DNA of 64,000 nt. Origin: Dehalococcoidales bacterium (lineage in GTDB: Bacteria; Chloroflexota; Dehalococcoidia; Dehalococcoidales; RBG-16-60-22). The DNA lies in assembly GCA_050018395.1 (NCBI GenBank), contig JBEKAC010000002.1:600-64599 (forward strand). The letters are read 5' to 3'. Position 1 is the stretch's first letter. The number at the start of each line of letters is the position of its first letter. The notes beneath the pieces are model-generated. The model was not told the DNA's origin. It worked only from the letters and a program-made list of their open reading frames with translations, and made no database searches. A program made the translations under genes and the position numbers. Shown here piece by piece: positions 1 to 52,575 of the stretch.

Positions 1-2649
1 TCCGGTGAAATCCGCACCTGGATGTTCTCGCTGGAACCTATCACCATCGGCGGGGAGCAGTGTTTCATCGGGGTGGCGATGGATATTACGGAACGCAAGC
101 GCATGGAGCAGGCCCAGCGCGAATCGGAAGAGAAATTCGCCGCCGCCTTCCACTCCAGCCCGGACATGATAACCATCTCAAATATGAATAAGGACAATTA
201 TATCGAAGTAAATGACAGTTTTGTCCGTAACACAGGTTATACCCGTGAGGAGTTAGTCGGCCATCCCGTGGGTGAAATTAATATGTTTGCCAATCCCCAG
301 GAATCTGAAAAAATGGCCAGGCTCCTACAGGAGCAGGGGTATATAAGAAACGAAGAGTTCAGCTTTAAGATAAAATCCGGAGAAATACGCGCCTGGTTAT
401 GCTCGGCGGATGTAATCACTATCGGCGGGGAGCCGTGTACAATTGCCGTGGCTACTGATATCACGGAACGCAAGCAGGCGCAGCAGGCCCAGCGGGAATC
501 GGAGGAGAAATTCGCTGCCGCCTTCCACTCCAGCCCGGACATGATTATTATCACCAGTCTAACCGACGGTAAATATATTGATGTCAATGAAAGCTTCGTC
601 CAGAATACCGGCTATACCCGCGAGGAGTTCATCGGCCACACGGTCAACGAATTTGATTTGTGGGCGGACCCGGCCGAGGCGGAGAGCTTTTTGCGCATAT
701 TCCAGGAGCAGAACAAGGTGAGAAACCAGGTGTACCGCTTCCGCTGTAAGTCCGGCGAGATCCGTACCTGGCTCTGTTCGGCGGATTTTGTGACCATCGG
801 CGGTCAGACCCGTATGCTGGCGGTAGCCGCGGACATTACCGAGCGTAAGAAAGCCGAGGAGGCTTTACAGGAGTCGGAAGAGAAGTTCTCCAAGGCCTTC
901 TATTCCAGCCCCTTCTCCGTGTCCATCAGTCGCCTCGGTGACGGCGCATTCATCGATGTTAATGACCGCTTCCTCCGTGATAAGGGCTATACCCGTGAAG
1001 AGATCATCGGCCATAGCTCCAAGAGCCTGAACATCTGGGCGAATCACGACCAGGCGCTGAATATTATGCAGACGGTCAAGGGCGGCGGACAGATTCACAA
1101 CATGGAGGCCCAGTTCCTCACCAAATCAGGAGATGTCCGTACCGGTTTGATCTCGGCGGACATCATTAATATCAAGAACGAGCCGTGCATGATGGTGATC
1201 AATAGCGATATCACCCAGCAAAAACAGGCGGAGGAGCAACTGCGCATCTTGAGCTCCGTCACGGAGCAGGTATCGGACTCCACTGTCATCACCGATCCTG
1301 ATTTCAAGATTAATTACATGAACCAGGCCGCCCAGAAACTGTTCGGCTATACCATTGAAGAAGCCCGCGGCAAATCGCTCAATCTTTTCAGTGAAAAACC
1401 GATCGCGAAGAGCATGCGGCAGGAAATTGTCGATAAAATCGCCAGTGATAAAGTCTGGAGCGGGATTATCACCAAGAAGCAGAAAAACGGCAACATCATA
1501 TTGTGTGATTGCCACATGTCTCCGCTCTACGATGAAAAAGGCAATCTGGTCTTTTATATCGATGTCCAGCGGGACGTCACCCGGCAGAAAGAGATTGAAG
1601 CCAAGCTGCAGGAGCACAAGAAACTGATCGACAGCATCCTGGCCACCATGCCGGAAGGCGTGCTTGTCATCGATAGCCAGGACCGTATCGTCCTGGCCAA
1701 CAAGGCCTTTTACGCCATTTTCCACATGCCCACGGCCATGAAAAACAAAACGCTGGGTGAAATCCTCCCCGTCGACAGTTTCTTTGACCTCCATAAGGCG
1801 GTGAAACTGGGCATTGCGGAAAATAATACCCTGGAATTCCGCTACCAGGTGCAGGGGCTTGACCGCATTATTTACTGCATCGTCGTCAAAATGGATGGGG
1901 AACGCTCCCTGCTAACTTTCACGGACGTTACCGCCGAGCGGGAGAAGGAAGAAAAGCTCTACCTCACGGACCGCCTGGCCTCCCTCGGAGAGATGGCCGC
2001 CGGCCTGGCGCATGAGCTGAATAATCCTTTGACCGGTATCCTGGCCCTGTCTCAAATGCTCGTGGACAGTGACCTGCCGGCAGAGCATAAAGAGGACCTG
2101 GATTGCATTAACAATGAAGCCAAGCGGGCCGCCGGCATCGTGAGAAACGTTCTGCTGTTCGCCCGCAATAAATCCGATGTCAACGGCCGCTCCTCGATTA
2201 ATGAGGTCCTGACCGACGTCGTGCGGCTGCGCGAGTACGAGCAAAAGGCCAGCAATATCAAGGTCGTCACCGAGCTGGAAGACAACCTGCCGGAGATCCC
2301 GATCGATAAGGGCCAGCTTCAGCAGGTATTCCTGAACCTCATCTCCAACGCTGAAGCAGCGGTTAAAGAAGCCGGGCGGCCCGGCGTCATCACCGTTACC
2401 ACCCAGCGTACCAATGGTCACGTCAACATCCTCGTCAGCGATAACGGCTGCGGTATCAAGAAGGACGTCATGCCCCGGATTTTCGATCCTTTCTTCACCA
2501 CCAAGGAAATCGGCAAAGGCACCGGCCTGGGGCTGAGTATCTGCTATAGCATCATCGTGAAACACGGCGGCAAGATCAATGTGAAGAGCCAGGTAAATGA
2601 AGGCACCACTTTCACCATCAGGATGCCCGTGGTGCTGCCTGAAAGATAG
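1..2649 (+). CDS. Multi-PAS sensor histidine kinase (5' end lies outside the window)
   Basis: Frame is open from nt 1: SGEIRTW precedes the first ATG at 22 and matches the ends of later PAS modules. Several PAS modules are each closed by a DIT(E/Q)(R/Q)K linker. H-box [10 protein letters not shown]. HATPase_c motifs DNGCGI and GTGLGLS. Confidence 0.9.
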
Positions 2650-2660
2650 AGAGGTAAGAT

Positions 2661-3680
2661 ATGATAACATCGCCTGCTAAAGAAAACATCCTCATTGTTG
2701 ACGATGAAAAAACGGTACGGAGAAGCCTGAACAAATGCCTGACGATGAACGGCTTCTCCTGCGAGGAAGCCAGCAACGCCGAGGAAGCCATGGCCACGCT
2801 GGGTAAAAAGCCGGCGGACCTCGTTATCCTGGATATTACGATGCCCGGCGTTTCCGGCAGCGATCTGCTGCCCAGGATTAAAAAGTCCTACCCGGATACC
2901 GCCGTCGTCATGGCTACCGCCGTCGTTGAACCGGATATTATCATCAACTGCATGAAAAACGGCGCCCACGACTACATCACCAAGCCGTTTGACATCACCC
3001 AGCTCGTCAATAACATCCAGACCGTGCTGGATAAAAGGAACCTGGAGCTCCATCTTAAAGAGAAGAGCCAGGTCCTCGAAGGTAAGGTACAAACGCAGGC
3101 TAAAGAGCTCCAGAAACTCTTCATTGACGCCGTGGAATCGCTCGTCGTCGCGCTGGAAGCCAAGGACCAGTACACCGCCGGCCACTCGCGCCGCGTCACC
3201 AAGATCGCCCTGGACATCGCCTACGCCATGAAAATGGCGGGTGAAGACCTGGAAAACCTGCGCTGGGCAGCCCTCTTGCATGACATCGGTAAGATCGGCA
3301 TTGACCCCTCCATCCAGAACAAGCCGGGCAGCCTGACGCCCTCGGAGTACCATTATATTCTCACCCATTGCAGCATCGGCTCCGGTATCGTTCAGCCGCT
3401 CGTCAATGCCAGTATCGTCGAGGCCATCAAGCATCATCATGACAGTTATGACGGCACCGGCCTCAATCAGACCGTTACCGGCGAGCAGATTCCGCTCGCT
3501 TCCAGAATTCTCGCCGTGGCTGATTCTTTTGACGCGATGACTTCGGACCGGCCTTACCGTACCGCCATGTCCGCCGCCAAGGCCATCGCGGAAGTGCAGC
3601 GGTGCTCCGGCACCCAGTTCGATCCGGTTGTCGTCAAGGCATTTTTGATGACGGCTATCGTGAGCTCTCTAAAGTCCTAA
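2661..3680 (+). CDS. Response regulator with REC domain and HD-GYP-type phosphodiesterase domain (GYP motif degenerate)
   Basis: REC motifs ILIVDDE, DLVILDITMPG, TKPF. HD-GYP-type motifs HSRRV, LLHDIGKIGI, HHHDSYDGTG (followed by LNQ rather than YP), ADSFDAMTSDRPYR. Starts 12 nt after the kinase stop. Confidence 0.88.
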   Translation: MITSPAKENILIVDDEKTVRRSLNKCLTMNGFSCEEASNAEEAMATLGKKPADLVILDITMPGVSGSDLLPRIKKSYPDTAVVMATAVVEPDIIINCMKNGAHDYITKPFDITQLVNNIQTVLDKRNLELHLKEKSQVLEGKVQTQAKELQKLFIDAVESLVVALEAKDQYTAGHSRRVTKIALDIAYAMKMAGEDLENLRWAALLHDIGKIGIDPSIQNKPGSLTPSEYHYILTHCSIGSGIVQPLVNASIVEAIKHHHDSYDGTGLNQTVTGEQIPLASRILAVADSFDAMTSDRPYRTAMSAAKAIAEVQRCSGTQFDPVVVKAFLMTAIVSSLKS

Positions 3681-3865
3681 GACGAAAGTTAGTGGATGGA
3701 AGTGACCTTAGTAACAGTCATTATGACGAATTCTCTATTTACTCGGGTTGACGGCCGTATGAATAATGGAAATAGGGAACCTGCGCCCGGCGACAGGCCG
3801 CTAGCACTTGTTAACGGCCGGTACGCGGCGCTTTTTGATCCTGGCCTGCAGGAACATATAAGAAG

Positions 3866-4213
3866 ATGAAAAGTGAAAAGGGTAATACCTTGATTGAGGT
3901 ACTGGTGGCTCTGGCGTTGCTGGGCACCGTCAGCGTCCTGTTTTTGGGCGGCGTGATGAACTCCACCAACGCCCGCGTTCAGGCAGACAGCCGCGCCTCC
4001 TCCAAGGTTCTCGCGGAGGGCATTATCGATTCCGTGAAAAAAATGCCTTTCGATGCCTCGTACAACATCACTGTTCCGGCGGAATTCTCCACCTATAACG
4101 CCACTCTTACCGTGACCAGCCTGGCCAACGGTAATATTCAAAAACTGACGGTCGCTATCTCGCACCTTGGCAAGCAGGTATTAACACTGGAAGATTATAA
4201 GGTTAACCGATGA
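3866..4213 (+). CDS. Prepilin-type (type IV pilin / T2SS pseudopilin-like) protein
   Basis: N-terminus MKSEKG|NTLIEVLVALALLG: Gly cleavage site, Glu at +5, hydrophobic helix. 115 aa. Overlaps the next gene by 4 nt. Confidence 0.7.
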   Translation: MKSEKGNTLIEVLVALALLGTVSVLFLGGVMNSTNARVQADSRASSKVLAEGIIDSVKKMPFDASYNITVPAEFSTYNATLTVTSLANGNIQKLTVAISHLGKQVLTLEDYKVNR

Positions 4214-4737
4214 TGTTCCGTAAAATAAGATTGTTCCATCAAAATCGGGCGGGCTGGACGCTCATCGAGATGCTGGTGGCTATCGCCATTACCGGCATCA
4301 TCGCGCTGGGAGCTTCCGTCTCCATGGCCCAGGTCATGAACTCGACCACACGGAATAATGATTATACCACCGCCAGCCGCAACGCCATGAATGCTCTGCA
4401 CTGGATGAGCCGCGACGCGGAAATGGCGCAGACCATCAGCGGTACCGCCGGCTTCCCGGCCTCACAGAACCTTTCCATGACGTGGAGGGGATGGGATAAT
4501 TCTAACTACACCGCCAACTACACTCTGGTCGCCGGCCAGCTCAAACGTATTTTTTCCGTCGGTTCCACCACTTCGACCACGGTGATCGCGGAAAATATTA
4601 ACTCTTCAACGCAAAAGACATTCTGTTCCAGCGTTAATGGGACGATTAACATCACCGTTACCAGCAGCGTGGGCAGCGGCGCCAGGGTCATCGATGTCAA
4701 GCAGGAACGCAAAATATCTTCGCGGCCGAATTTGTAA
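4210..4737 (+). CDS. Prepilin-type pseudopilin (GspJ/PilW-like size)
   Basis: N-terminus ...NRAG|WTLIEMLVAIAITGIIALG with Glu at +5. 175 aa. Translationally coupled to the upstream gene. Confidence 0.7.
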   Translation: MMFRKIRLFHQNRAGWTLIEMLVAIAITGIIALGASVSMAQVMNSTTRNNDYTTASRNAMNALHWMSRDAEMAQTISGTAGFPASQNLSMTWRGWDNSNYTANYTLVAGQLKRIFSVGSTTSTTVIAENINSSTQKTFCSSVNGTINITVTSSVGSGARVIDVKQERKISSRPNL

Positions 4738-4742
4738 TAACT

Positions 4743-7700
4743 ATGAAAAATTACTTTAAATATCTCGCATCATTACTTAAATCCCAGGAAGCGGGGCAGG
4801 CCCTGATCATCGTGCTGGTTTTTATCCTTTTGGGGACCCTTACCCTCGTGCCCACCCTGGCGCACATGAGCACCGCACTGCAAAGCGGCAGGGTTTATGA
4901 GAACAAGAGCAACGAGTTTTTCACCGCCGACGCCGGCATTGAAAACGGCCTCTGGCGCATTAAATACGATGACCTGGGCCCTACTTATAGTCCTTATGAT
5001 TTCGATACAACCTTTTCCTACCAGACAGACCCCGTCAATAACCGCAATGCGGCGGTCACTGTCCAGAATATCTGGCTCCCCACTAACGTCACGCTGGCCT
5101 CGCTCGGCATTACGCCGGATGCGGCCCAGACCATGGTGGACTCGGAAAAACTGGTGGTCTCGGGTACTTCCGGCGCTATCCCGCACCAGCCCTACCACAT
5201 TGCCATAGCATTTACTCCCGCAACAGGCGATAACCTGACTATAAAATCGGTGGGCATCTGGCTGCCGCAGGACTTTACTTACGCTAATAACTGCACACTG
5301 GAAACCGGCGGACAGTTTACCAAATACTATCCTCATGCGGAGACCGTTACTACCGTACCGGGGGGTACGTCTATCGTCTGGAGCTATACCGCGCCCTACC
5401 CCGTGTTTACCGACTTCCCCAACATGGATACGGAAAACGGGACCCTGTCCTCCTCGATAACTTTTAGCTATAATCCTCCCGCCAGCAACCCCACCAAGCT
5501 GCCACTGGCGGTGGCCTGGGTTACCACCGACCAGGTTTCAGATTCGCCCGTCGCCTGGGACACGGATACGCGCTATTATAAAATCACCGGCGCCAACGGT
5601 AAGACGGAGATTGAGACCTATTCCTCCAAGTCTGAGTTGCGTAAGCTGGGTGACGCCATCGCCGGCTCTTATGTCGCCGTCGGCAACTCGCTGATGATCG
5701 GTGACGTCACCAAGCGTAACCAGTTGCTCTCTTCCAGCGCCTGCGATGTGTCCACGGTTTGGCCTATTCCGGCGGATGCGGATGTCCTTCAAGCCAAACT
5801 CTACTGGGCAGGCTTCCGTCTGGCTGGCAGCATTTTTTCCGATAGCTGCAACGACTTTTCTAAATGGGACAGGAGCAATGATGACGGTAACCAGACGGTG
5901 AAACCGACAGGTGATGGCGCTAATAGCGGCACACGCCATATGCTGCAAATAAGGCTACCGACAGGTGCGGGCGATACAAGCCAGATAGCTTCAGGTACAT
6001 ACGCCTCGCTGGATGAGTGTTCGTGGGATAATGTAGCCTGGAACACGTCGGATTACGAAAAAACCGGAACTACGGCGGGATATGGGCTATTTACCTTTGC
6101 CACACCTGCAATACCCACAGGAGCAACTATCAATAGTGTTAACGTTTACCAGTACACGAGAGATGATACCAGTGGCACTAATTATATACGAGAGTGCATC
6201 AAGGTCAAAGGTACTAGGTATGAGGGAAGCTCTAGCCATAACCCTGGAACGACGGCAACGTTCTATTCTACCTCATGGGCGACTAATCCAAATACCGGCT
6301 TAGCTTGGACAGTCAACGATGTTAATGGCTCAGGGCCAGCCTCTTTACAACAATTCGGCTTCGGCGGTATGACTGATAATGACTGGAACCCCGCCTTCAG
6401 AGTATGTTCCTGCTGGATGACGATAGACTATGATTTAGCCGGCAATTATTACACTTCGGTTGATGAGACGTCGCCTGACTATACGGACGGAGAATATTTC
6501 AATGCGGCTAGCGGCTCAAGCTATCAACATTTTACTTTCCCTTCTTTTAGTATCCCGGCAAGTTGCCCGGTAACCGACCTGAAAATAACCTACTCGGCTT
6601 GTGAATTTGATGCAAACACTTCGGCGGGCACGAATAATGTGAGGGCTGGCATAAAGGTTAACGGGATTCAATACGACACTACAGATTCAGGGAACGACCC
6701 TGGCTATACGCCCGCCACCTACACATATACATATACTGTTAATCCGAATACAAACTTAGCATGGACGGCCGCCGATATCAACGGCACGGGAGCGCATCCA
6801 TTACAACAGTTCGGGTTTGCCACCAGCGATTCCAGCCCGGCGGTGTTGTTCTCGATGGTCTATGCTCAGGTAGATTACACCAGTGACAGTCTCTGGACTA
6901 TTTCCTCCGGCCGGTTCCAGGGTCAGGGCAGTAGCAGTGGCACTACGGACGCCAGGACGCTCACCCTGAAAAACAGCATCGATTTATCCTCCTATGCGCC
7001 CGGAACCATCGCTTTATACTGGGACCAGAGTACCGGCGGCAGCCCGGGAACCACGGACTCCCTGTATTATGCCATCTCCGGTGACGGAGGGAATACCTGG
7101 AGCGCCAATACCGAAGCCTTCCACGGCAGCCCCTCGACCTCGTTCGGGGCCATCGTGCCTACCGCGAACATGACCAGTAACTTTAAATTCCGGCTCTACT
7201 TTAATTACACTTCTAATAGCAAATATGTGTACTTGGATAATATTCAGGTGCTCACCGTGCCGCCGGATACGGATGTTAACTTTTCAATCAACAACCAGCA
7301 GGTCTACTTGGACGGCAGCGGTAACCCCCAGGCGGGTTCACAAAAGCTCACGGCTTCCTCTAGCGCCGTGCTGGTCAACACGAATCTGAGTGCTATCGAC
7401 TCTGGTAAATACGGCTATTTCTATACTTGCCAACGGGACGTCTCCAAGCTGGTGAAGACATATCCAATTGTTCCGGGTGAGCAGCACCATACCGGCAATG
7501 CTTTGTACACGGTCGGCGATGTCACCGCGGATACCGGGCAGTACATCTCTTATGCCGGCTGGTCGCTCATCATCATTTATACCAGCCCGGCCACGGCGGG
7601 GCACTACCTTTATCTTAATGACGTCTTCGCTTACAACCCCGGCAACTCCAACCTGGATTTTGACCATGATGGGACTCCGGGCGGTGATGTTTCGGGCTTT

Positions 7701-8099
7701 GTGATTCCGGAGCCTATCAGGAATAAAAGCGGTCAGATCCTCGAGACCGTGGCGGCCAACATCACCTGCTTCGTCGGCGAAGGTGACGCCATTTACACCG
7801 GAGACTCGGTGATGATTACCGGTCAGCAGTCGGGTAACAGCGAGTATCTTTCCAACAGCGCCTCCCCTTCGAATAACGTCTGGAACGGCGCGGATACTGT
7901 CTCCAGCTATCCCGGCATTGATATCGATACTTTTTCCGTTCTCTGGAATGATAATATCTTAACGCCGGGCGATACCCGGTTGCATCTGGACTTGACCACT
8001 CAGACAGACGTCTGGGAACTGATATATATCATCATGTCCGTCCGCAGTGAGACGGTTACCGGCGGGACGGAGAACTTTATCATCCACAACACGTCCTAG
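4743..8099 (+). CDS. Large secreted/surface protein with PilX/GspK-like N-terminal anchor; putative pilus-tip adhesin
   Basis: 1118 aa. N-terminus QEAG|QALIIVLVFILLGTL has the hydrophobic helix but Ile instead of Glu at +5. The rest is Thr/Ser/Asn/Gly-rich. Two tandem ~150-aa modules share NPNT(G/N)LAWT..D(V/I)NG(S/T)G...LQQFGF. Asp-box SGDGGNTW. Starts 5 nt after the second pseudopilin. Confidence 0.65.
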   Translation: MKNYFKYLASLLKSQEAGQALIIVLVFILLGTLTLVPTLAHMSTALQSGRVYENKSNEFFTADAGIENGLWRIKYDDLGPTYSPYDFDTTFSYQTDPVNNRNAAVTVQNIWLPTNVTLASLGITPDAAQTMVDSEKLVVSGTSGAIPHQPYHIAIAFTPATGDNLTIKSVGIWLPQDFTYANNCTLETGGQFTKYYPHAETVTTVPGGTSIVWSYTAPYPVFTDFPNMDTENGTLSSSITFSYNPPASNPTKLPLAVAWVTTDQVSDSPVAWDTDTRYYKITGANGKTEIETYSSKSELRKLGDAIAGSYVAVGNSLMIGDVTKRNQLLSSSACDVSTVWPIPADADVLQAKLYWAGFRLAGSIFSDSCNDFSKWDRSNDDGNQTVKPTGDGANSGTRHMLQIRLPTGAGDTSQIASGTYASLDECSWDNVAWNTSDYEKTGTTAGYGLFTFATPAIPTGATINSVNVYQYTRDDTSGTNYIRECIKVKGTRYEGSSSHNPGTTATFYSTSWATNPNTGLAWTVNDVNGSGPASLQQFGFGGMTDNDWNPAFRVCSCWMTIDYDLAGNYYTSVDETSPDYTDGEYFNAASGSSYQHFTFPSFSIPASCPVTDLKITYSACEFDANTSAGTNNVRAGIKVNGIQYDTTDSGNDPGYTPATYTYTYTVNPNTNLAWTAADINGTGAHPLQQFGFATSDSSPAVLFSMVYAQVDYTSDSLWTISSGRFQGQGSSSGTTDARTLTLKNSIDLSSYAPGTIALYWDQSTGGSPGTTDSLYYAISGDGGNTWSANTEAFHGSPSTSFGAIVPTANMTSNFKFRLYFNYTSNSKYVYLDNIQVLTVPPDTDVNFSINNQQVYLDGSGNPQAGSQKLTASSSAVLVNTNLSAIDSGKYGYFYTCQRDVSKLVKTYPIVPGEQHHTGNALYTVGDVTADTGQYISYAGWSLIIIYTSPATAGHYLYLNDVFAYNPGNSNLDFDHDGTPGGDVSGFVIPEPIRNKSGQILETVAANITCFVGEGDAIYTGDSVMITGQQSGNSEYLSNSASPSNNVWNGADTVSSYPGIDIDTFSVLWNDNILTPGDTRLHLDLTTQTDVWELIYIIMSVRSETVTGGTENFIIHNTS

Positions 8100-8109
8100 G
8101 ATGGCCGTC

Positions 8110-9363
8110 TTAGGCCGCGTCCGTGCGGAAGCGCCAGATAGCGATCAGCCCGAAGGCTAAAGCGAAAGCCGCCAGCGCTATCATCGAAGGCGCGGCGTCC
8201 CCGAACCCCGCCCCGAACAGCATCAGCTTGTTGAAGCCCTCGGTCGCCCAGGCGTGGGGCACGATTTTCGAGATGTTTTGCAGCCATTGCGGGTAAAGGA
8301 AGGACGGCCACCAGCACCCGCCGAGAGGCGCCAGCAGCAGCGATGTCAGCACCGCCAGCGAGGAAGCGCTGCGCATTGTTCGGGCCAGCGTGGCCAGCAT
8401 TAAAGCGAACGCCGAGGACATGACCACCATCAGCACGGAAAGCAAAATGACCGCCCCCGGCGAAAGCCCCATGTCCACATTAAATACCAGTATACCTACC
8501 GCCCAGAAGATGATAATTTGTATCAGCCCCCGGATAACCGAACCCGTAAAAATACCGCCCAGTATCGCCTCTTTGCTCACGGAGGTGGAAAGCAGCCTTT
8601 CCAGGGTGTGGTTCTGGCGCTCCTGTACCACCGCTATCGCCGATAGCCCGGCCGCCATGAAGACGAACATGACCAGGTACCCAGGCACCACGAAGTTGGA
8701 GGAGTTGATGGCCTTGACGGCCCCGATGCTCTCCGTTCTGTAGGTCACGTAGGCCGCCGCCGCGTTAGCCGTCCCGCCGGCCATTTCCTTCGCCAGCAGG
8801 TCCTGGGAGGCTTTGGCGATGCTGGCGGAGTCGCTGCCGATAATGCCGTTCTTCACCATCAGGTCGATGCTGGCGTGGATGGCCACCTTATTCGTGCCTA
8901 TCTGCGAGGCTATCGCCTGGGCCATGCCGTTGAGCGCCGCCTGGGCGTTGGTGGCGCTGGCGTTCACATAGACTTCCAGGCTGGTGCCCGTCTCCGCGGC
9001 TACCGCCTGGGAGAAGTCCGCCGGGAATCCGATGAACCCGTCGATGGTGCCGTTATCCACCGCTGCTTTAGCGGCGTTATAATCACGGTCCCAGACAATT
9101 TGCGGGTCGCCCGGTTTTAAGAGCGATGGGTCCTGGGTCTCGATGCTGCCTAAAATCTGCTGGCTAAGGCCCCCGGCGGGCTCCTGGGTGGCCAAGTGCA
9201 GCGTCAGCCGCTTGTCTTCGCCCCCCACCCCTTTCAGCAGGAAGGTGAATAGAACGATGAACATGATAGGAAAAGCCAGGCTGAAGAACAACGACGTGCG
9301 GTCGGTGATGAAAATCTTCAGGTCTTTGATGGCGTAAAACCAGATATGCTTCAGGTTTTTCAT
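8110..9363 (-). CDS. ABC-2 type transporter permease
   Basis: Track ORF 8110..9456 trimmed to Met-32 (MKNLKHIWFYAIKDLKIF), 5 nt after the upstream permease stop. One N-terminal TM, a large loop, then a C-terminal cluster of TM helices typical of ABC-2 permeases. Confidence 0.8.
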   Translation of the reverse strand: MKNLKHIWFYAIKDLKIFITDRTSLFFSLAFPIMFIVLFTFLLKGVGGEDKRLTLHLATQEPAGGLSQQILGSIETQDPSLLKPGDPQIVWDRDYNAAKAAVDNGTIDGFIGFPADFSQAVAAETGTSLEVYVNASATNAQAALNGMAQAIASQIGTNKVAIHASIDLMVKNGIIGSDSASIAKASQDLLAKEMAGGTANAAAAYVTYRTESIGAVKAINSSNFVVPGYLVMFVFMAAGLSAIAVVQERQNHTLERLLSTSVSKEAILGGIFTGSVIRGLIQIIIFWAVGILVFNVDMGLSPGAVILLSVLMVVMSSAFALMLATLARTMRSASSLAVLTSLLLAPLGGCWWPSFLYPQWLQNISKIVPHAWATEGFNKLMLFGAGFGDAAPSMIALAAFALAFGLIAIWRFRTDAA

Positions 9364-9368
9364 TTTAT

Positions 9369-10544
9369 TTATTTCCCCGCCACCGGTTTGAATACCATCC
9401 GGCTGATGATCAGCCCCACGATGACCACCCCGGCCAAGACCAGCAGTGGCTGCCACGCCTGGCCCAGCGAGCCGCCGCTGCTGATGATCGTTCTATAGGC
9501 GCGGTTGGCGTAGGTATTCAGGGATATTTTGCTCAAAGTGTCCAGCACCGAGCCCTTGGCGATGGTGAAGAAAGTACCGCCCATCATCGTCATGAACATC
9601 GTTACCACCACCCCCACCCAGCTGGCGGCCCGCTCGGTGTGTGATATCGCGGCGACGATCAGTCCTATCGCTCCGGCCGCCGCCGTGAACAGCAACGTTA
9701 TCACCATCGCCGCCAGGAAAGACAGCGGCGTGAACATTTGAAAGACGGCGTAAGCCAGTATGAGTAAAATCAGGGTCTGCACGAACCCCCGCGCGATATT
9801 GGATAAAAACTTGCCCAGGAAAAGCTCGCCGATGCTCAAACGCGTGGTTAGCAGCCTTTCCAGCGTGCCCCGCCGCCTCTCCTCCACGATGGTCGTCGAG
9901 GAAAGAGACAGAGCAAAAAGCACGTACATCGTGACGATGCCCGGCAGGTACTGGTTGACAAAGTCCGGTTTGCCGCCGGTGGTTACCTGGCTGACGCTGA
10001 CCGCGGGTTGCTGGCGTTCCTGCGTCAGATAGTCCTGCACCATGGGTACGATTGCGGCATCGCTGATGCCCGTCCCCGCCAGATTAGCCGCCACCAGGTG
10101 CCGCGCCTGGAACTCCTGGTTGATGTTTTCCGCCTCGCCCCGGATGATGCTGGCGAGTATCTGCCCCTCCGTCCCCCCGTTGCCCCGTTGCTTGAATACG
10201 AGCTCCGCCTGCCCGCCGGCGGTGAGGTTATCGGAGAAGCCGGCCGGTATGAAAAGGACCATCAGCAGGTCGGAGCGGTCGAGCTTGGTGTCCGCTTCCT
10301 TCGCGCTCATCACGTCGACGCTGATGCCGTCGACGCTGTCAATACTTTTAATCAACTGCTGGGAATAGGCGCCTTTGTCCTCGTCCACGATGGAGGCGGT
10401 GGCTTTGAACAGCGTTTGCCCCCCGAAGGCCCCGTACATCAAGGCGAAGGTGAGTATCGGCAGCAAAAGCCCGAACGCCAGGTCGCCTTTGTCCTGGAGG
10501 TACAGCTTGACTTCGTTGAGGGTGATAAATAATGCTCTCTTCAT
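9369..10544 (-). CDS. ABC-2 type transporter permease
   Basis: 391 aa with the same architecture as the downstream paralog. Follows the ATPase gene by 6 nt. Confidence 0.8.
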   Translation of the reverse strand: MKRALFITLNEVKLYLQDKGDLAFGLLLPILTFALMYGAFGGQTLFKATASIVDEDKGAYSQQLIKSIDSVDGISVDVMSAKEADTKLDRSDLLMVLFIPAGFSDNLTAGGQAELVFKQRGNGGTEGQILASIIRGEAENINQEFQARHLVAANLAGTGISDAAIVPMVQDYLTQERQQPAVSVSQVTTGGKPDFVNQYLPGIVTMYVLFALSLSSTTIVEERRRGTLERLLTTRLSIGELFLGKFLSNIARGFVQTLILLILAYAVFQMFTPLSFLAAMVITLLFTAAAGAIGLIVAAISHTERAASWVGVVVTMFMTMMGGTFFTIAKGSVLDTLSKISLNTYANRAYRTIISSGGSLGQAWQPLLVLAGVVIVGLIISRMVFKPVAGK

Positions 10545-11383: not shown

Positions 11384-11432
11384 AAAATCAAATCTCAAAA
11401 CTCAAATCTCAAAAACACAAATCAAAAGCTAA
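11384..11432. repeat. Degenerate heptamer tandem repeat, 7 units (AAAATCA AATCTCA AAACTCA AATCTCA AAAACAC AAATCAA AAGCTAA)
   Basis: Read directly from the sequence. Same family as 36011..36066 and 56584..56618. Confidence 0.9.
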
Positions 11433-12379
11433 AGATGTGGATTTGTGACCGGTTTTTTGGGGTAATATGTCTCTTGAGTTTCTAATAGCATGGGTGTTGC
11501 TTGATAATCAATAATTAAGTTAGGCTCAGGGACAAAAAAGCGCCTATCTCTGTTTTTTCCTGTTTTTTCTAAACGCTTTTTAATTATTTGAAAATATTCT
11601 TTTTTGTTATCTATCAACACAACGTTTCTGTTTAACTTTTCGGCGGCTACTCCTGTTGATCCACTGCCAGCAAATGGGTCCAGGACAATATCGCCTTCAC
11701 GAGTAAATAGCTTGATAAAAAACGCGGGAACTCCAATGGGAAAAGCAGCGGGATGCCCCATATTTTTTCCTACTAGAGGAACCCTTAGTGTATTTCCTGG
11801 TAGGACATCTTTTTTCCCAACCCACTTTCTCAAATCACGGCCAAAACCACTATCGTTTTCACTATTATGCCTGCCATTACTTTTACCGGTTAGTTTGGCA
11901 AGCCTTTTATTTGCCCATTCGCCTATTTCTTGTTTTACGTTATCTTGATACATAGAGAATTTTGGTTGTTTGGTCATATGAAAACAATATTCCCATTCAT
12001 CACGCAGCCGATTTGGCCAGTAACCTGGCATTGCGTTTGGTTTAACCCAAATATAATCATCAACACAAAGCCATCCATTTTTAGAAAGAGCTTCAATTGT
12101 GTGCCATACAAACCTGTGTCTAATACCATCAACTACTTTATCTTTTACATTCAATACAAATGAGCCATTATCAGCTAAGACTCTCCAAAACTGGTCATGA
12201 AAACTTAAAATGAATTCAACATATTTATCTGGATTAATACTATCATAGTGATTTGAACGCGCATCCGCATAAGGAGGAGAGGTAATAATCAGATTAAAAT
12301 ATCCATCCGGGTATTTAGAAAGTACTTCTCTATTATCACCTAAATGCACTTCAGTTTTATACATATGAGTCACCAACAA
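11429..12379 (-). CDS. DNA methyltransferase, beta-class amino-MTase (N4-cytosine or N6-adenine)
   Basis: Motif IV IITSPPYADA is N-terminal and motif I VLDPFAGSGSTGVAA is C-terminal. Composition is visibly AT-rich compared with the flanks. Confidence 0.85.
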   Translation of the reverse strand: MLVTHMYKTEVHLGDNREVLSKYPDGYFNLIITSPPYADARSNHYDSINPDKYVEFILSFHDQFWRVLADNGSFVLNVKDKVVDGIRHRFVWHTIEALSKNGWLCVDDYIWVKPNAMPGYWPNRLRDEWEYCFHMTKQPKFSMYQDNVKQEIGEWANKRLAKLTGKSNGRHNSENDSGFGRDLRKWVGKKDVLPGNTLRVPLVGKNMGHPAAFPIGVPAFFIKLFTREGDIVLDPFAGSGSTGVAAEKLNRNVVLIDNKKEYFQIIKKRLEKTGKNRDRRFFVPEPNLIIDYQATPMLLETQETYYPKKPVTNPHL

Positions 12380-12401
12380 ATTGTCATATCGTTTTTAGTT
12401 A

Positions 12402-13331
12402 CTAAATACTCTTGTTACCGCAGAAATATTTTATCAACTTATGAGGATCCACGAAGCAATCTTTATCATCTAGTAGTTCATTTTCCCTACAGCATTTACG
12501 GAAGGAATCTAGTAATTCTGGGGGTATTTCTTCACTGACTAAGTAAGGATTTTCACTCTCAAGTAATACGTCTAGTACCAATACTGCTATTTCTTCATAG
12601 GAATAGTTGGAAAAGAACGGCCAGAAATAGTCTGAAAACCATAATTCTGTATTGTACGAATAAGGGACTTTGGCTCTATTTCCTTTCATTAATCTAGTTC
12701 CTCGTTCGACACTCAAACCAAATACGCAAATGTAAGATCCATCACGATTTTTATCCCCACTAGCTACTCTTTCCAATGCAGCAATGGCTTTTGGCCAATC
12801 TTGTCCGCCCATCGTATTGGAACGATTTTTCACTGAGACATATATTGATAATTTTGACTTTCCATTTTTATAAGCTAATACCGCATTAAAATCAGCTTCA
12901 GCCAATCCGATGTCTGAAACAGTTTCAAACCTTTTAGATACTGCGGCGGCATCTTTAGCTATATATTGATACCTCCAAGCAGAATTCATCCTTTCTTTTT
13001 GGATACCTCGATTATGAAATTGTTCTCTAGCCACTTCTGAATAAGGCCTGCCTGTACACTGTAACGCGGTTATCGCTGCATCACCGCAATATTTAACAAA
13101 ATACCTGAATAGACTACGCCCTTCTTTTGTATATATCTTGGTTATTTCTTCTGAAGTAGCATTAGCCGGTAAGTCTAAAACAACTCTGCTTGACTTTCGA
13201 GAGGCGGTTTGAATAGCATCTCTTATGATTGCTTTTAGTTGTATTTTTGAGATATTCTTTACGTGTTGCTTTAGTTTACTATCATCAAGTAAATTATTAT
13301 TCAAACGTGGATACTTTTGAATAGTTACCAT
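12402..13331 (-). CDS. Putative type II restriction endonuclease (cognate of adjacent MTase)
   Basis: 309-aa ORF, co-directional, ending 22 nt upstream of the MTase, with the same AT-rich composition. No family recognised from memory. Possible PD-(D/E)XK variant core (EADFNAV ... IYVSVKNR). Confidence 0.45.
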   Translation of the reverse strand: MVTIQKYPRLNNNLLDDSKLKQHVKNISKIQLKAIIRDAIQTASRKSSRVVLDLPANATSEEITKIYTKEGRSLFRYFVKYCGDAAITALQCTGRPYSEVAREQFHNRGIQKERMNSAWRYQYIAKDAAAVSKRFETVSDIGLAEADFNAVLAYKNGKSKLSIYVSVKNRSNTMGGQDWPKAIAALERVASGDKNRDGSYICVFGLSVERGTRLMKGNRAKVPYSYNTELWFSDYFWPFFSNYSYEEIAVLVLDVLLESENPYLVSEEIPPELLDSFRKCCRENELLDDKDCFVDPHKLIKYFCGNKSI

Positions 13332-16978: not shown

Positions 16979-17824
16979 ATGACGTACGAGACATATTATT
17001 ACAAAGAAGATAGAGTCAAGCTATTATTAGGCAATTGTCTTGAGGTTCTACCTCAAGTCCCGGAAAACTCAATTGATATGATTTTTGCTGACCCACCATA
17101 TAATTTATCTAATGGTGGAATCACTTGTTATGCAGGGCGTATGGTATCTGTAAATAAAGGTGATTGGGATAAGTCAAAAGGCTTTGAGCAAGACCATCAA
17201 TTTACTTTGGATTGGCTTAATGCATGCCGCCGCGTATTGAAAGATGACGGTACTATCTGGATTTCGGGCACTATTCATAACATATATTCAATCGGATTTG
17301 CTTTGCAACAACTTGGTTATAAAATACTCAACGAAATATGTTGGTACAAACCAAATGCTGCACCAAACCTCTCTTGCCGTTATTTTACACATAGCCATGA
17401 GGTGGTGTTATGGGCTGCAAAATCAAAAAACAGTAGGCATAAGTTTAATTACGAACGAATGAAAAAAATAGCCGGTGGTAAACAGATGCGTTCTGTTTGG
17501 ATGGATATAGATAAAGAAGAATCTGTACCAGACATTTGGACAATCAATACGCCGTCAGTAGAAGAAAAACATTTTGGAAAGCATCCAACACAAAAACCTG
17601 TAGCGTTATTAGAAAGAATTATCTTAGCTTCAACAAATCCATATGATACAATTCTCGATCCTTTTACTGGTTCATCAACAACTGGCGTTGTCGCCATCAA
17701 GCATGGTAGAAAATTTATTGGGATTGATAGCAGTAAGGAATATATGGATTTATCCACTAAACGTATTGAAGAGATAACAAGGGAAATAACATTCAATCCT
17801 AAACTTGTCGAAGAATCGGTTTAG
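16979..17824 (+). CDS. DNA methyltransferase, beta-class N6-adenine type (CcrM/M.HinfI-like architecture)
   Basis: Motif IV IFADPPYNL is N-terminal. HPTQKP, then motif I ILDPFTGSSTTGVVA, are C-terminal. Colinear by recall with CcrM-family enzymes. AT-rich cassette. Confidence 0.85.
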   Translation: MTYETYYYKEDRVKLLLGNCLEVLPQVPENSIDMIFADPPYNLSNGGITCYAGRMVSVNKGDWDKSKGFEQDHQFTLDWLNACRRVLKDDGTIWISGTIHNIYSIGFALQQLGYKILNEICWYKPNAAPNLSCRYFTHSHEVVLWAAKSKNSRHKFNYERMKKIAGGKQMRSVWMDIDKEESVPDIWTINTPSVEEKHFGKHPTQKPVALLERIILASTNPYDTILDPFTGSSTTGVVAIKHGRKFIGIDSSKEYMDLSTKRIEEITREITFNPKLVEESV

Positions 17825-50121: not shown

Positions 50122-52575
50122 CTAGTCTTCTTTCGTCTCTTCAAAGGCGGTAATCGCCACCAGCCGGTCACCCTCGTCCAGCGTCATCACCCGCACGCCC
50201 TGGGTGCTGCGTCCCTGGGTGGTGATGCCGTGCTTCGGGTCTTCCTCTTTTACCGGCGTGCGTGTCATCATGCCTTCCGCGGAGATAAGCATCACTTGAT
50301 GGCTCTCCGCTACTACCCTGGAGGCGGTCACGTCACCCGTTTTGTCGACGATCTTGAACGTCCGCACACCGCTGCCGGACCGGTGCTGCCTGGGATACTG
50401 GTCTACCGACGTCACCTTGCCATAGCCTTTCTCCGTCACCACCAGCACATAGCCGTCCGGGATGACCCGGTCCATGCTGATAATGCCGTCGCCCAGGGCC
50501 ACCTTCATGGCGCGTACGCCGCCGGAGGTCCGCGAGGCCGCCCGCAGGCTGGCCACGTCAAAGCGGATGGACTGCCCCTTGCGCGTTACCAGTAATATAT
50601 CGTCCTTGTCTTTGGCCAGGCAGACGGAGACCAGCTCGTCGCTAGGCGCCAGGTCCATGGCGATAAGCCCGCTGCTGCGTACTGCGGTGAACTTGTCCAC
50701 CGCCGTTTTCTTGATTTCGCCCAGCTTCGTGGCCATGATCATCGAGGTGCCGGGCATCAGCCCGGTGGTGGCCACCAGCGCGGTCACCCTCTCCCCCTCG
50801 GCGATGGACAGCAGGTTAATGATGGCCAACCCCTTCGAGGTACGGGTGCTGCCGGCCGGTATTTCGTGGCATTTCAGGTAAAATACCTTGCCCTTGTTGG
50901 TAAAGAAAAAGAGGTCATCGTGCGTATCGGCCACGGTGAGTATCATCACGGCGTCCTCTTCCCGGGTGACCTGCCCGATGATGCCCTTGCCGCCGCGGTG
51001 CTGGAGCACATAATACTTTGAAGGTATCCGCTTGATGAAGCCGCGGCTGCTCAAGGTGACGACGTCTCGCTCGTGGGGGATAAGGTCTTCCTCGGTAAAG
51101 TCCAGCTTGCCCTGCTCGAGGATTTCCGTGCGCCGCTTGTCGCCGTACTTCTGCTTGAGCTCGGTCACGTCCTGTTTAATCACGGCCAGGATGCGGCGCG
51201 GGCTGGCCAGCAGGTCTTCCAGGTAGGAGATGGTCTTGATGACCTCGGCGTACTCTTCCTCGATTTTCTGTCTTTCCAGGCTGGCCAGGCGCCTTAGCTG
51301 CATATCAAGTATGGCCTGCGCCTGAAGCGTAGAAAGACTGAATTGAGTCATGAGGTTCTTGCGCGCCGCTTCAGTGGTCTCGGACTCACGGATGCATTTA
51401 ATGACAGCGTCGATGTTATCCAGCGCTATTCTTAAGCCTTCCAAAATGTGGGCGCGGGCCTTGGCCTGTTTCAATTCAAACTTGGAGCGGCGGGTAATGA
51501 CGATTTTGCGGAAATCGATGTAAGCCTGCAGCGCTTCCTTAAGGCTGATGACCTTGGGCTGGCCGTCCACCAGTGCCAGCATGTTCACGAAGAACGATGT
51601 CTGCATGGCCGTATGCTTGAAGAGGTTATTGAGCACCTTTTCCGGCTGGGCATCTCTTTTAAGCTCGATGACGATGCGCATCCCCTGCCGGTCGGACTCG
51701 TCACGCAGGTCGCCGATGCCCTCGATTCTCTTGTCTTTAACCAGGTCGGCGATGTTCTCGATCAGGGCCGCTTTGTTCGTCTGGTACGGCAGCTCGCTGA
51801 CGATAATCTGCTGCTTGCCGCCGGCGCTGATGCTGGAGATATGCGCCTTGGCCCGCACCACCACCTTGCCGTGCCCGGTAGCGTAAGCGTTCTGGATGCC
51901 CTCCCGCCCCTGGATGATGCCGGCAGTGGGGAAATCCGGCCCTTTGACCACTTTGATCAGCTCATCGATGGTCACCTGCGGAGTATCGATGAGCAAAGCA
52001 ATAGCATCGCAGATTTCATTGAGGTTGTGCGGAGGAATATTGGTGGCCATGCCTACGGCGATGCCGGCGCTGCCGTTGAGGAGGAGATTAGGGAGACGGG
52101 CGGGCAGGACCGTGGGCTCCTTGAGGCTTTCATCATAGTTAGGCATGAAGTCGACGGTCTCTTTTTCAATGTCGACCAGCATTTCTTCAGCGATTTTCGA
52201 AAGCTTGGCCTCGGTATAACGCATCGCGGCCGGAGGGTCGGCGTCGACGCTGCCGAAGTTGCCCTGGCCGAAGATGAGCGGGTAGCGCATGGAAAATTCC
52301 TGGGCCAGGCGCACCATGGCGTCGTAGATGGCGGTATCGCCGTGCGGGTGGTACTTGCCCATCACCTCGCCGACGATGAGGGCGCTTTTGCGGGTCGGCC
52401 CGCTGAAACGCAGGTTCATATCGTTCATGGCATAAAGAATGCGCCGCTGCACCGGCTTGAGCCCGTCTCTCACGTCCGGCAGCGCCCGGGCCACGATGAC
52501 GCTCATCGCATAATCGAGGTAAGAGCCCCGCATTTCGTCTTCTATATTTACAGGCTTCACTGTTCCTGTTACCAT
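50122..52575 (-). CDS. gyrA: DNA gyrase subunit A
   Basis: [34 protein letters not shown], and a C-terminal beta-pinwheel. 817 aa. Confidence 0.97.

Follow-up and report, generated by a model that had tools for sequence, protein, structure and literature searches.

Genes for two small prepilins and a much larger pilin-like protein form a compact operon in the genome of an uncultured Dehalococcoidales bacterium, and we think it probable that the three products are the I-, J-, and K-type minor-pilin set of a type IV pilus (T4P) of this organism. Together, they most likely make up the adhesive tip of that pilus, as its cap. We call the small proteins p1 and p2, the large one BIG, and the three together the trio; the window is the whole stretch of 64,000 nucleotides (nt) that was analyzed. 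The features discussed below are as follows.

22..2649, + strand, histidine kinase with multiple PAS domains, truncated at its 5' end by the window start (Pfam domains)
2661..3680, + strand, response regulator with REC and an HD-GYP-family output domain (Pfam)
3699..3777, + strand, conserved promoter/operator element (alignment of 16 kinase-linked intergenic regions)
3866..4213, + strand, p1, small prepilin of 115 aa (ORF, N_methyl)
4210..4737, + strand, p2, prepilin of 175 aa (ORF, N_methyl)
4743..8099, + strand, BIG, 1118 aa, K-like (Glu5-less) modular pilin, putative cap subunit/adhesin
4743..4964, + strand, BIG residues 1 to 74, leader to Gly18 and long hydrophobic alpha-1-type helix (model helix 2 to 74)
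5010..5912, + strand, BIG residues ~90 to 390, conserved N-proximal beta-sandwich region (pLDDT ~80 to 95, full-length model)
6006..6878, + strand, BIG residues 422 to 563 and 572 to 712, tandem duplicate of a ~140-aa module (Smith-Waterman)
7050..8087, + strand, BIG residues 770 to 1115, family-defining conserved C-terminal beta-rich domain (pLDDT ~80 to 95)

The coordinates, strand, and tight packing of the three open reading frames given in the initial annotation were confirmed (3866 to 4213, 4210 to 4737, and 4743 to 8099), as were both junctions behind its claim of translational coupling: a 4-nt ATGA overlap between p1 and p2 and a 5-nt gap between p2 and BIG. The neighbors that it named, a multi-PAS kinase and a REC/HD protein, do lie upstream of the trio. 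The kinase has Pfam matches to PAS_9, PAS_4, PAS (4 to 5 copies), HisKA, and HATPase_c, and on the source contig the full gene encodes 1621 aa (full length seen in L001); the regulator has a REC plus HD_5/HD architecture (Response_reg, 1e-30; HD_5, 5e-33). The operon had been called an orphan, and for the window this holds. None of the 38 larger ORFs outside the trio (about 150 aa or more, with spurious-looking overlapping ORFs left out) matched T2SSE, T2SSF, PilM/N, or peptidase A24, and a prepilin-motif scan of all window ORFs of at least 60 aa returned p1 and p2 only and no further pilin.

The small proteins had been said to carry canonical prepilin N termini with Glu5, and both motif and profile agree (a slash marks the predicted cleavage site). 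The signal sequences are canonical class III, MKSEKG/NTLIE in p1 and NRAG/WTLIE in p2, with predicted cleavage after Gly6 and Gly15, respectively, and Glu at +5; the Pfam N_methyl scores are 28.1 and 29.8 bits against a gathering cutoff of 21.2. The +1 residues, Asn in p1 and Trp in p2, are unusual among prepilins. Gly6 and Glu11 of p1 are invariant among 70 homologues, and Gly15 and Glu20 of p2 are at least 90% conserved among 76. Throughout both families the top matches are minor-pilin models. The best NCBIfam matches of p1 are ComGE, GspI, and PilV, and the best models for p2 are GspJ (1e-6, confined to the N-terminal region), HpsC, and ComGF, all under their curated cutoffs; by these sub-threshold best matches, p1 would be a GspI/ComGE/PilV-like and p2 a GspJ/HpsC/ComGF-like minor pilin.

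The N terminus of BIG, QEAG/QALIIVLVFILLG, has a leader ending at Gly18 and no Glu at +5. The pilin-like helix without Glu5 that had been claimed for this protein is a property of its whole family: Gly at -1, followed by a hydrophobic helix, is found in 83/83 members, and Gln occupies +1 in 54 of the 83 and Glu occupies +5 in 0. This helix is the single hydrophobic segment of BIG. The further claim that BIG is of the GspK/PilX type stands for the Gly at -1, the helix, and the missing Glu5, but not for fold or HMM membership. PilX_N matches BIG weakly, under the Pfam cutoff, and N_methyl does not match it. Foldseek with a model of the BIG N-domain of modest quality (pLDDT 59.7) returned no GspK or PilX fold, and in profile searches against PDB sequences the similarity to solved pilins was limited to alpha-1N, with none past the N-terminal helix.

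In the AF2 model of BIG (mean pLDDT 74.5), the 74-residue N-terminal helix is followed by beta domains. The passenger had been described as rich in Thr, Ser, and Asn, and these make up 11.7%, 10.3%, and 6.8% of BIG. The tandem modules align with a Smith-Waterman score of 215 (shuffles, 41.6 ± 7.1). The first copy has a pLDDT of <35 and lies within a stretch, residues 395 to 571, that is missing from most homologues of ~950 aa. The duplication accounts for BIG having 1118 aa where most homologues have about 950. Foldseek matched the BIG model to reelin repeats, CBM22, and other jelly rolls, and matched the N-proximal domain to generic Ig-like sandwiches only (YcnI, cohesin, and RrgB). No Pfam domain was found in any of 71 full-length homologues. 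Long members of the BIG family exceed the Pfam score for Reelin_subrepeat-B. The C-terminal domain matches just 330 of 1.84 billion representatives and sits at the C terminus in nearly all of the matches listed. Because some 1000 aa of BIG are beta-sandwich and jelly-roll modules, we read it as an adhesin; from this architecture, BIG is probably an adhesin displayed at the tip, and its fold class suggests a glycan or other polymer ligand.

The trio recurs at 79 loci in species-representative genomes of Dehalococcoidia, so it is more than a chance arrangement. Homologues with the order kept lie inside complete T4P clusters of other Dehalococcoidia, which are laid out as PilB, PilC, pilin, pilin, K-like protein, PilO-like, PilM/N, and PilT, with the BIG gene third, after p1 and p2. 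The distant BIG homologue P0067 has the context PilB-PilC-pilin-pilin-BIG-X-PilM/N-PilT, a layout also present at PilC-anchored loci and in 12 species-representative genomes, and in further PilB-anchored clusters the third gene encodes a short K-like protein whose N terminus is homologous to that of BIG. In best local alignments, all three window proteins are 33 to 41% identical to those of machinery-linked trios: p1 and p2 are each 34 to 37% identical to the first and second pilins of the clusters, and the C-terminal domain of BIG is 40 to 41% identical to that of their BIG proteins. Judged by these alignments and the gene order, the window trio is a detached version of the machinery-linked T4P trio; three genomes have both a machinery-linked trio and an additional detached one. 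A separate canonical PilA-like pilin is encoded near pilT at four machinery-linked loci (L028, L072, L076, and L089), and such genes also stand beside further PilB-anchored clusters.

Since same-order homologues lie inside T4P clusters, some with a separate PilA-like pilin, we read the trio as a GspI/J/K-like priming and tip set. The minor-pilin priming or tip complex proposed in the initial annotation is thus supported, also by the minor-pilin models and the Glu5-less large subunit. The synteny survey that it called for found the trio order kept in detached and machinery-linked loci alike, and homologues of BIG tied to pilus loci do exist. In the mechanism we propose, a prepilin peptidase encoded elsewhere would cut after Gly6, Gly15, and Gly18, and the three alpha-1 helices would form a staggered complex in the membrane, with BIG topmost because a subunit without Glu5 need not neutralize one above it. 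In known tip complexes the K subunit lacking Glu5 is the cap (PMC9934059), and modular pilins fit at the tip only (PMC9934059, PMC8179133). With this complex as primer, a PilB/PilC/PilM-N/PilO machine whose genes lie outside the window would polymerize the major pilin, a separate PilA-like protein, and the complex would then remain at the tip. There the ~1000-residue extracellular part of BIG, consisting of an Ig-like sandwich, duplicated reelin-subrepeat/CBM-like jelly rolls, and the conserved C-terminal domain, would be shown as an adhesin.

The conserved element 90 to 170 nt upstream of p1 contains the direct repeats TGACCTTAGTAAC (3703 to 3715) and TGACGAATTCTCTA (3724 to 3737), whose starts are 21 nt apart, followed by a -35-like TTTACT (3738 to 3743) and a -10-like AATAAT (3762 to 3767); both hexamers were also found by a promoter scan. 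By nhmmer, the window has a single copy, most kinase-linked and many stand-alone loci have one copy each 5' of the first pilin gene, and no machinery-linked locus has any. This distribution points to a promoter/operator specific to detached trios. The window cassette would be transcribed from its own promoter, and the two direct repeats are a putative site for a DNA-binding regulator.

In 25 species-level genomes the kinase and regulator genes precede the trio, and the two proteins probably tune the same pilus as the trio. Of the c-di-GMP-linked control that had been suggested, the synteny, conserved in these 25 species, stood, but two observations speak against the rest: the operon has its own promoter, and the regulator, which keeps the HD and HHHD motifs, has GLN at the GYP position. 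Its 28 orthologues all have HD (28/28) and never GYP (0/28); all have GLN (19/28) or GLK at that position. Without the GYP motif, phosphodiesterase activity is uncertain. None of the window genes was identified as a diguanylate cyclase, and conserved synteny is the only pointer to a possible link between c-di-GMP and the trio. A plausible route for the regulator, which we offer as conjecture, would be c-di-GMP acting on a PilB of the MshEN type. Some Dehalococcoidales have a short PilB with intact MshEN c-di-GMP motifs (two 24-residue motifs with a 5-residue spacer, as defined in PMC5013675), but no PilB is known from a genome with a kinase-linked trio.

It is quite possible, if somewhat less than probable, that kinase and regulator adjoin the trio by inherited synteny alone, with neither control of it nor c-di-GMP action. 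The trio's own conserved promoter, which also occurs at stand-alone trios that lack a neighboring kinase or regulator, fits this, as do the lack of a DNA-binding domain in the regulator and the replacement of GYP in every orthologue; moreover, LarN and ABC-2 flanks are co-conserved with the trio, which suggests plain synteny. On the other hand, kinase, regulator, and trio are still adjacent in PPR_0277 despite a different upstream flank and a downstream flank broken by rearrangement. Two-component arrays are embedded in machinery-linked T4P clusters of Dehalococcoidia, and these, like the PilB proteins with intact MshEN motifs, also argue for a functional connection.

For the trio itself, a self-contained short pseudopilus (T2SS/Com-like), with p1 as the main polymerizing subunit that pushes, secretes, or displays BIG, seems unlikely. 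Here BIG would be pushed through the S-layer instead of capping a long PilA fiber. The p1 gene is the first pilin gene right after pilC in machinery-linked clusters, as comGC is after comGB; a PilA-like gene was not seen within the 10-kb flanks at most machinery-linked loci, and detached trios, except L040 and L060, have no PilA of their own. However, the p1 family best fits ComGE, GspI, and PilV and not GspG, PilA, or ComGC, canonical FTLIELL-type PilA-like genes adjoin many clusters, and most clusters include a PilT-like retraction ATPase, which fits dynamic pili.

Its great size for a pilin, the absence of a detectable pilin fold past the helix, and the poor N_methyl and PilX_N results would suit a BIG that is anchored in the membrane by its N terminus, as a protein of the surface or associated with the S-layer, outside any filament and adjacent to pilins only through shared export or regulation. 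We consider this very unlikely: Gly -1 and the hydrophobic helix are invariant in the family, BIG is in every case preceded by genes for an I-like and a J-like pilin, pilB-pilT clusters included, and is translationally coupled to them in the window, a short K-like version fills its slot in other clusters, and the lost Glu5 is what marks a capping K subunit (PMC9934059). Least credible is the reading of the detached copy as a paralogue that is redundant, decaying, and without a function today. In its favor, the BIG gene is split in PPR_0277 (two places ~50 kb apart, L018 and L024) and is called as 827 + 142 aa at L008; against it, the ORFs are intact in the window and most of the 25 species, the C-terminal domain is 45 to 59% identical between kinase-linked loci, and leader, promoter, and coupling are conserved.

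As an I/J/K-type tip set, the trio resembles GspI-GspJ-GspK of the T2SS and FimU/PilV-PilW-PilX of T4aP, in which small Glu5 pilins are followed by a larger Glu5-less capping subunit, and, as with HIJK sets, its genes accompany PilB/PilC-type machinery or form a satellite of it. The HMM likeness reaches no curated cutoff (p1 to GspI/PilV/ComGE, p2 to GspJ, and BIG to PilX_N). Unlike HIJK sets, the trio has no H-like fourth pilin (GspH/FimU-like), and unlike GspK and PilX, BIG has no detected GspK alpha-domain or PilX fold; it is 3 to 4 times larger and carries beta-sandwich modules. The PilA-PilB-PilC operon of Streptococcus sanguinis likewise encodes three minor pilins, one of them Glu5-less, and the host of the trio would, like S. 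sanguinis, be monoderm-type by the classing of the reviews on that system (PMC8179133, PMC9934059). There, adhesive modules (vWA, or a lectin plus Ig-like) are grafted on tip-only pilin modules (PMC8179133, PMC9934059); the modules of BIG are also beta-sandwich or lectin-like. However, the two systems share no sequence homology, and the S. sanguinis modular pilins (~50 kDa, versus 1118 aa for BIG) keep Glu5 while the Glu5-less PilA is small, whereas here the Glu5-less subunit bears the modules.

CofB and TcpB (T4bP) and Thermus ComZ, which are discussed in PMC8179133, are oversized tip minor pilins whose extra beta-rich domains accompany roles in starting assembly and presenting a binding surface. 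BIG, too, is one outsized pilin-like protein that carries additional beta-rich domains, but these proteins belong to different T4P classes, homology to BIG was not detected, and CofB and TcpB are homotrimers without I/J partners. Myxococcus xanthus has several alternative minor-pilin/PilY1 clusters, presumably serving one machine, with the non-pilin PilY1 as effector. The three genomes with linked and detached trios similarly have several paralogous, putative priming/tip sets; in contrast, the K-like pilin itself bears the effector, and a PilY1-like protein was not found. The regulator matches RpfG-type REC/HD-GYP regulators in its REC plus HD_5 domains but not in the GYP motif, and the Dehalococcoidales PilB proteins with MshEN motifs, from genomes other than those known to have a kinase-linked trio, resemble MshE-type c-di-GMP-binding ATPases (PMC5013675). 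The trio is a new family on the already known theme of modular tip pilins and not a novel type of system.

Three tightly spaced genes encode two small prepilins (p1 and p2) and a large K-like protein (BIG), together called the trio.

3866-4213, + strand: p1, 115 aa
4210-4737, + strand: p2, 175 aa
4743-8099, + strand: BIG, 1118 aa

The p1 and p2 genes overlap at an ATGA, and a 5-nt gap separates p2 from BIG, so that the tight coupling described in the initial annotation is confirmed. All three proteins have a class III signal peptide leader (short, positively charged, and with Gly at -1): MKSEKG precedes NTLIE in p1, ...NRAG precedes WTLIE in p2, and ...QEAG precedes QALIIVLVFILLG in BIG. The canonical prepilin N-termini attributed to the two small proteins were recovered by profile search. 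Both proteins exceeded the gathering score of 21.2 bits for Pfam N_methyl (PF07963; p1, 28.1 bits; p2, 29.8 bits) and the cutoff of 16.3 for TIGR02532 (20.7 and 25.9, respectively), and both have Glu at +5 of the mature protein (Glu5). Gly(-1) and Glu5 (Glu11) of p1 were invariant across 70 relatives, and Gly and Glu5 (Glu20) of p2 were at least 90% conserved across 76.

BIG matched neither PF07963 nor TIGR02532. Gly(-1) was found in 83 of 83 members of its family and Gln at +1 in 54 of 83, and no member (0/83) had Glu at +5; BIG does, as had been noticed, have a pilin-type leader and helix but not Glu5. The K subunit, which caps HIJK tip complexes, is distinguished by its loss of Glu5 (PMC9934059), and the absence of Glu5 from BIG is this known exception for K-type subunits. 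BIG is also rich in Thr (11.7%), Ser (10.3%), and Asn (6.8%), another feature read correctly at the outset. The original interpretation, a minor-pilin tip set ending in a large subunit without Glu5, is essentially right.

Of the families proposed for the trio, N_methyl held for p1 and p2, GspI, GspJ, and PilX_N gave only matches below cutoff, and GspK gave none. Among the 70 p1 relatives, the commonest NCBIfam matches were ComGE (61), GspI (48), and PilV (47). A generic prepilin N-terminal domain model matched 60 of the 76 p2 relatives, the other commonest matches being a prepilin-peptidase-dependent protein model, HpsC, GspJ, and ComGF. The matches of p1 and p2 to minor-pilin models were confined to the N-terminal 50 to 60 residues and were all below curated cutoffs: GspI (TIGR01707) scored 26.4 on p1 versus an equivalog cutoff of 44.35, and GspJ (TIGR01711) scored 28.6 on p2 versus 64.85. 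For these reasons we do not claim membership in the GspI or GspJ equivalogs and call the proteins I-, J-, and K-like. When the p1 and p2 family profiles were compared with PDB sequences, only the alpha-1N helix of full-length pilins was matched. The sole Pfam match of BIG was PilX_N (PF14341), below threshold (E = 0.037 to 0.14; 12.6 to 14.4 bits versus a cutoff of 25.5); PilX_N matched 6 of 15 relatives, with a best E of 0.0013. The GspK model (T2SS_GspK, NF037980) did not match BIG, nor did profiles of the PilY1 and Neisseria PilC families, BIG having a pilin-type leader and helix instead. As a candidate for the major pilin, p1 was downgraded because it best fits minor-pilin models and because separate PilA-like genes lie near many machinery clusters.

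The decisive result was gene context. P0067, a distant homologue of BIG, sits inside a complete type IV pilus (T4P) cluster with the following order.

Start: MerR-type HTH, REC/GerE regulator, PilB (Mrr_cat + MshEN + T2SSE), PilC (T2SSF)
Middle, after PilC: 135-aa pilin, 179-aa pilin, BIG
End, after BIG: 227-aa protein, PilM/PilN fusion, PilT-like ATPase

Another locus, reached through a related PilC, had an identical layout. Compared gene for gene with these machinery-linked trios, p1 and p2 of the window were each 34 to 37% identical, and BIG was 33 to 34% identical over its N-terminal 380 to 430 residues and 40 to 41% over its C-terminal 350 to 400. Clusters anchored on PilB contained p1, p2, and, in the same slot, a short K-like protein of 281 to 432 aa; the N-termini of the two that were checked (347 and 432 aa) were homologous to that of BIG. 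Upstream of pilB, these clusters also encode a separate pilin of 123 to 137 aa with a canonical KGFTLVELL N-terminus. Homologues of the trio are thus tied to pilus loci, as the reading of the operon as a pilus component implied. Because trios recur in machinery clusters, the I/J/K-like trio is a standard component of Dehalococcoidia T4P clusters. It is distinct from the probable major pilin, and the trio in the window is a detached copy.

The clusters had other features. Dehalococcoidia have two types of PilB (loci L006, 5525-7810, and L009, 7685-9988; compare L068, 3852-5558): a long one (~765 aa), which has no c-di-GMP motif and whose N-terminus consists of Mrr_cat-like domains (restriction-endonuclease fold) in duplicate, and a short one (568 aa), in which two MshEN c-di-GMP motifs are intact. 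A signaling array (PAS kinase, REC, REC-kinase, REC) stands before many of the T4P clusters of Dehalococcoidia, its last member being a REC-ParA/MinD fusion encoded immediately upstream of pilB (L092, 5385-10014; L094, 5683-9983; L101, 5651-7199). The K slot of such clusters encodes a short K-like protein with a beta-helix like that of bactofilins. A second tandem pair of small pilins, sometimes with a short K-like gene, was seen in L078 (6002-11467), L087, L088, L068 (12690-13492), L066, and L071; these tandem copies suggest that the cassette is often duplicated in place.

One genome per GTDB species was scanned, and the best 80 of 282 relatives gave 79 loci, all in Dehalococcoidia and all with the order p1-p2-BIG. 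Annotation by tblastn with reference proteins separated three contexts: machinery-linked (type A), kinase-linked as in the window (type B), and stand-alone (type C), types B and C being the detached forms. Among the best 80 of 282 relatives, type A occurred in at least 12 genomes and type B in at least 25. The type B order is LarN (- strand), PAS kinase, REC/HD-GYP protein, p1, p2, BIG, and ABC-2 (- strand), and both the trio order and its adjacency to the kinase and regulator recur across species-level genomes of Dehalococcoidia. The contexts of type C trios were heterogeneous, and no common regulator was found upstream of them. Three genomes (W156, W589, and CAZTBG) had both a type A and a type C locus, and PilA-like genes flank four type A and two type C loci. 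In a rough neighbor-joining tree of the BIG C-terminal domain, the window fell among type B loci and type C loci adjacent to ABC-2 genes, and type A loci were mostly in other clades. A cassette that moved and then diversified would fit this pattern; the crudeness of the tree permits no further conclusion.

The large pilin gene of one MAG (PPR_0277) lies in two pieces, in L018 (10001-11758) and L024 (10001-11266), both on JBGLNK010000001.1. The N-terminal 742 residues of BIG remain with the kinase, regulator, and pilins, and the C-terminal 415 residues lie with the ABC-2 genes ~50 kb away on the opposite strand, a rearrangement that is an inversion, a pseudogene, or a misassembly. One other locus has a probable frameshift in the large gene; otherwise the BIG family is intact and conserved. 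Locus L005 was discarded as proof that five genes moved together between different flanks, its downstream difference being a breakpoint inside the large gene.

The 71 full-length homologues of BIG (~950 aa) came without exception from MAGs or metagenomes of Dehalococcoidia, and no Pfam domain was found in them. The N-terminus of BIG is its sole hydrophobic segment. An AlphaFold model of BIG (48 homologues) had a pLDDT of 74.5; its regions and an internal duplication are as follows.

BIG residues 2-74: N-terminal helix (model)
BIG residues ~90-390: confident beta region (model)
BIG residues 395-571: low-confidence stretch (model)
BIG residues 590 to 1100: confident beta domains (model)
Window 6006-6878, + strand: tandem duplication of a ~140-aa module, BIG residues 422-563 versus 572-712

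The two module copies aligned with a score of 215, versus 41.6 ± 7.1 for shuffled sequences, and contain an NPNT(G/N)LAWT...LQQFGF motif. The low-confidence stretch of the model is the first copy. The duplication is shared with the ~1135-aa relatives P0020 and P0029 and is absent from most ~950-aa homologues; it accounts for the greater length of BIG. Whole-chain Foldseek searches returned reelin repeats, CBM22, Cry-toxin domains, and viral jelly rolls, with low TM scores that make these matches useful for fold class only. Longer members of the family matched Reelin_subrepeat-B above the Pfam threshold and also contained GEVED domains. Modeled alone, the N-terminal 392 residues gave a poorer pLDDT (59.7) than the full-length chain, and the top 50 Foldseek matches of this model were generic Ig-like sandwiches (e.g., YcnI, cohesin, BslA, and RrgB), with neither GspK nor PilX among them. 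The C-terminal 349 residues define the family. They had only 330 matches among 1.84 billion representative proteins (clusters), nearly always at the C-terminus of proteins of ~100 to 1900 aa, many of which are probably fragments.

A modular pilin consists of an N-terminal pilin module fused to one or more modules that are not T4P-specific (Raynaud et al. 2021, PMC8179133). Because BIG has a pilin-type N-terminus onto which modules predicted to be beta-sandwiches and jelly rolls are grafted, it looks like a modular pilin, and for steric reasons such a protein would be placed only at the filament tip (PMC8179133). The signature used there as the operational criterion, IPR012902, is missing from BIG because Glu5 is absent.

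The 185-nt spacer between the regulator gene and p1 contains a conserved promoter-like block.

3699-3777, + strand: conserved promoter-like block
3703-3715, + strand: direct repeat 1, TGACCTTAGTAAC
3724-3737, + strand: direct repeat 2, TGACGAATTCTCTA; repeat starts 21 nt apart
3738-3743, + strand: -35-like TTTACT
3762-3767, + strand: -10-like AATAAT

The repeats (13 to 14 nt, of the type TGAC-N5-TAAC) overlap the -35 and are a likely operator for a DNA-binding protein. An nhmmer profile of the block matched once per locus, always upstream of p1, in most type B and many type C loci but never in type A loci, and the window has no second copy. The block is specific to detached trios in dozens of Dehalococcoidia genomes. 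By this conservation, detached trios come with a promoter of their own and a likely operator. A generic scan of 2500-8600 for promoters and terminators gave no more than expected from shuffled sequence; the promoter call depends on cross-species conservation instead. No c-di-GMP riboswitch or other RNA family was found upstream of p1 with Rfam.

The multi-PAS histidine kinase (truncated at the window start) and the regulator described as lying directly upstream of the trio were both identified with Pfam, the regulator as REC plus HD_5. It has a canonical REC domain, an HD_5 domain (5e-33) with LLHDIGK and HHHD motifs, and no DNA-binding domain. At the GYP position, the window protein reads DGTGLNQ (GLN). 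Among 28 orthologues, HD was present in all 28, and the position held GLN in 19, GLK in 3, GPN in 2, and GYP in none. This REC/HD-GYP subfamily (window 2661-3680; orthologues in L002-L082), which retains the HD and HHHD motifs and lacks GYP throughout, may have diverged in catalysis or function. The c-di-GMP-binding MshEN motif is 24 residues long and occurs in two copies with a 5-residue spacer (PMC5013675), and the short PilB proteins of several Dehalococcoidales have two intact 24-residue motifs with that spacer. Because of these motifs, a link to c-di-GMP is plausible but conjectural. Two-component arrays are also embedded in machinery-linked clusters.

Within the window, the trio is an orphan, as first proposed. 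Pfam found no T2SSE, T2SSF, PilM/N, or peptidase A24 among the 38 larger ORFs outside the trio, and a prepilin-motif scan of all ORFs of at least 60 aa found only p1 and p2. None of the 120 PilC and 120 PilB matches listed from a collection of 5.8 billion proteins could be traced to an assembly with a kinase-linked trio, and the six matches examined in context were all in other assemblies. The DNA belongs to a contig of a JGI metagenome, its source being an uncultured Dehalococcoidales bacterium. Elsewhere, the window has housekeeping genes (kdp operon, dnaK, gyrA, dnaA, and obg), and these neighbors are of note.

8110-9456, - strand: convergent ABC-2 permease gene, stop codon 10 nt from the end of the BIG stop
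11429-13331, - strand: N6_N4 DNA methylase and adjacent 309-aa protein, low-GC stretch (0.39 versus ~0.55)
16979-17824, + strand: second N6_N4 methylase
50122-52575, - strand: gyrA
59769-61121, + strand: dnaA

Given gyrA and dnaA, the probable replication origin region is ~55 kb from the pilin operon. The sequence between BIG and the ABC-2 permease gene (8099-8113) contained no hairpin resembling an intrinsic terminator. The low-GC stretch is probably an inserted restriction-modification island; its 309-aa protein had no family match.

Sediments, aquifers, and dechlorinating consortia harbor abundant Dehalococcoidia, and to our knowledge, essentially nothing has been established about how these bacteria attach to surfaces, particles, or partners. 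The literature searched contained no description of their T4P minor pilins. We regard the giant K-like modular pilins, together with their I- and J-like partners, as a new family restricted to this lineage; the cassette in the window is a detached one, under a promoter of its own and next to a sensor kinase and an HD-GYP-family regulator. Diversification of the K-like cap into a family-specific giant modular protein provides concrete adhesin candidates for Dehalococcoidia, and the detached copy makes signal-controlled choice of the pilus tip a testable idea. A broader proposal, which we put forward as speculative and on balance doubtful, is that one conserved T4P machine is primed by interchangeable I-J-K trios. 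What the K-like cap carries would vary widely, with a 200-aa beta-helix at one extreme and shuffled jelly-roll modules totaling more than 1800 aa at the other. Detached cassettes would be switched on separately through their own promoter/operator and the PAS-kinase/HD-GYP-family pathway, and environmental signals would thereby reprogram pilus adhesion, e.g., to particles, polymers, or partner cells. If this were true, a family of giant cap-borne adhesins without described relatives would exist in a hard-to-culture, environmentally important class.

By analogy with GspIJK/PilVWX and with PilABC of S. sanguinis, and from its architecture, the trio would be located at the tip and act in priming and adhesion. 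BIG extends the modular pilin concept to a capping subunit without Glu5, a kind that escapes signature-based surveys, since these rely on the N_methyl motif. In kind, the trio matches what is already known of minor-pilin tip complexes, modular pilins, and multiple alternative priming sets.
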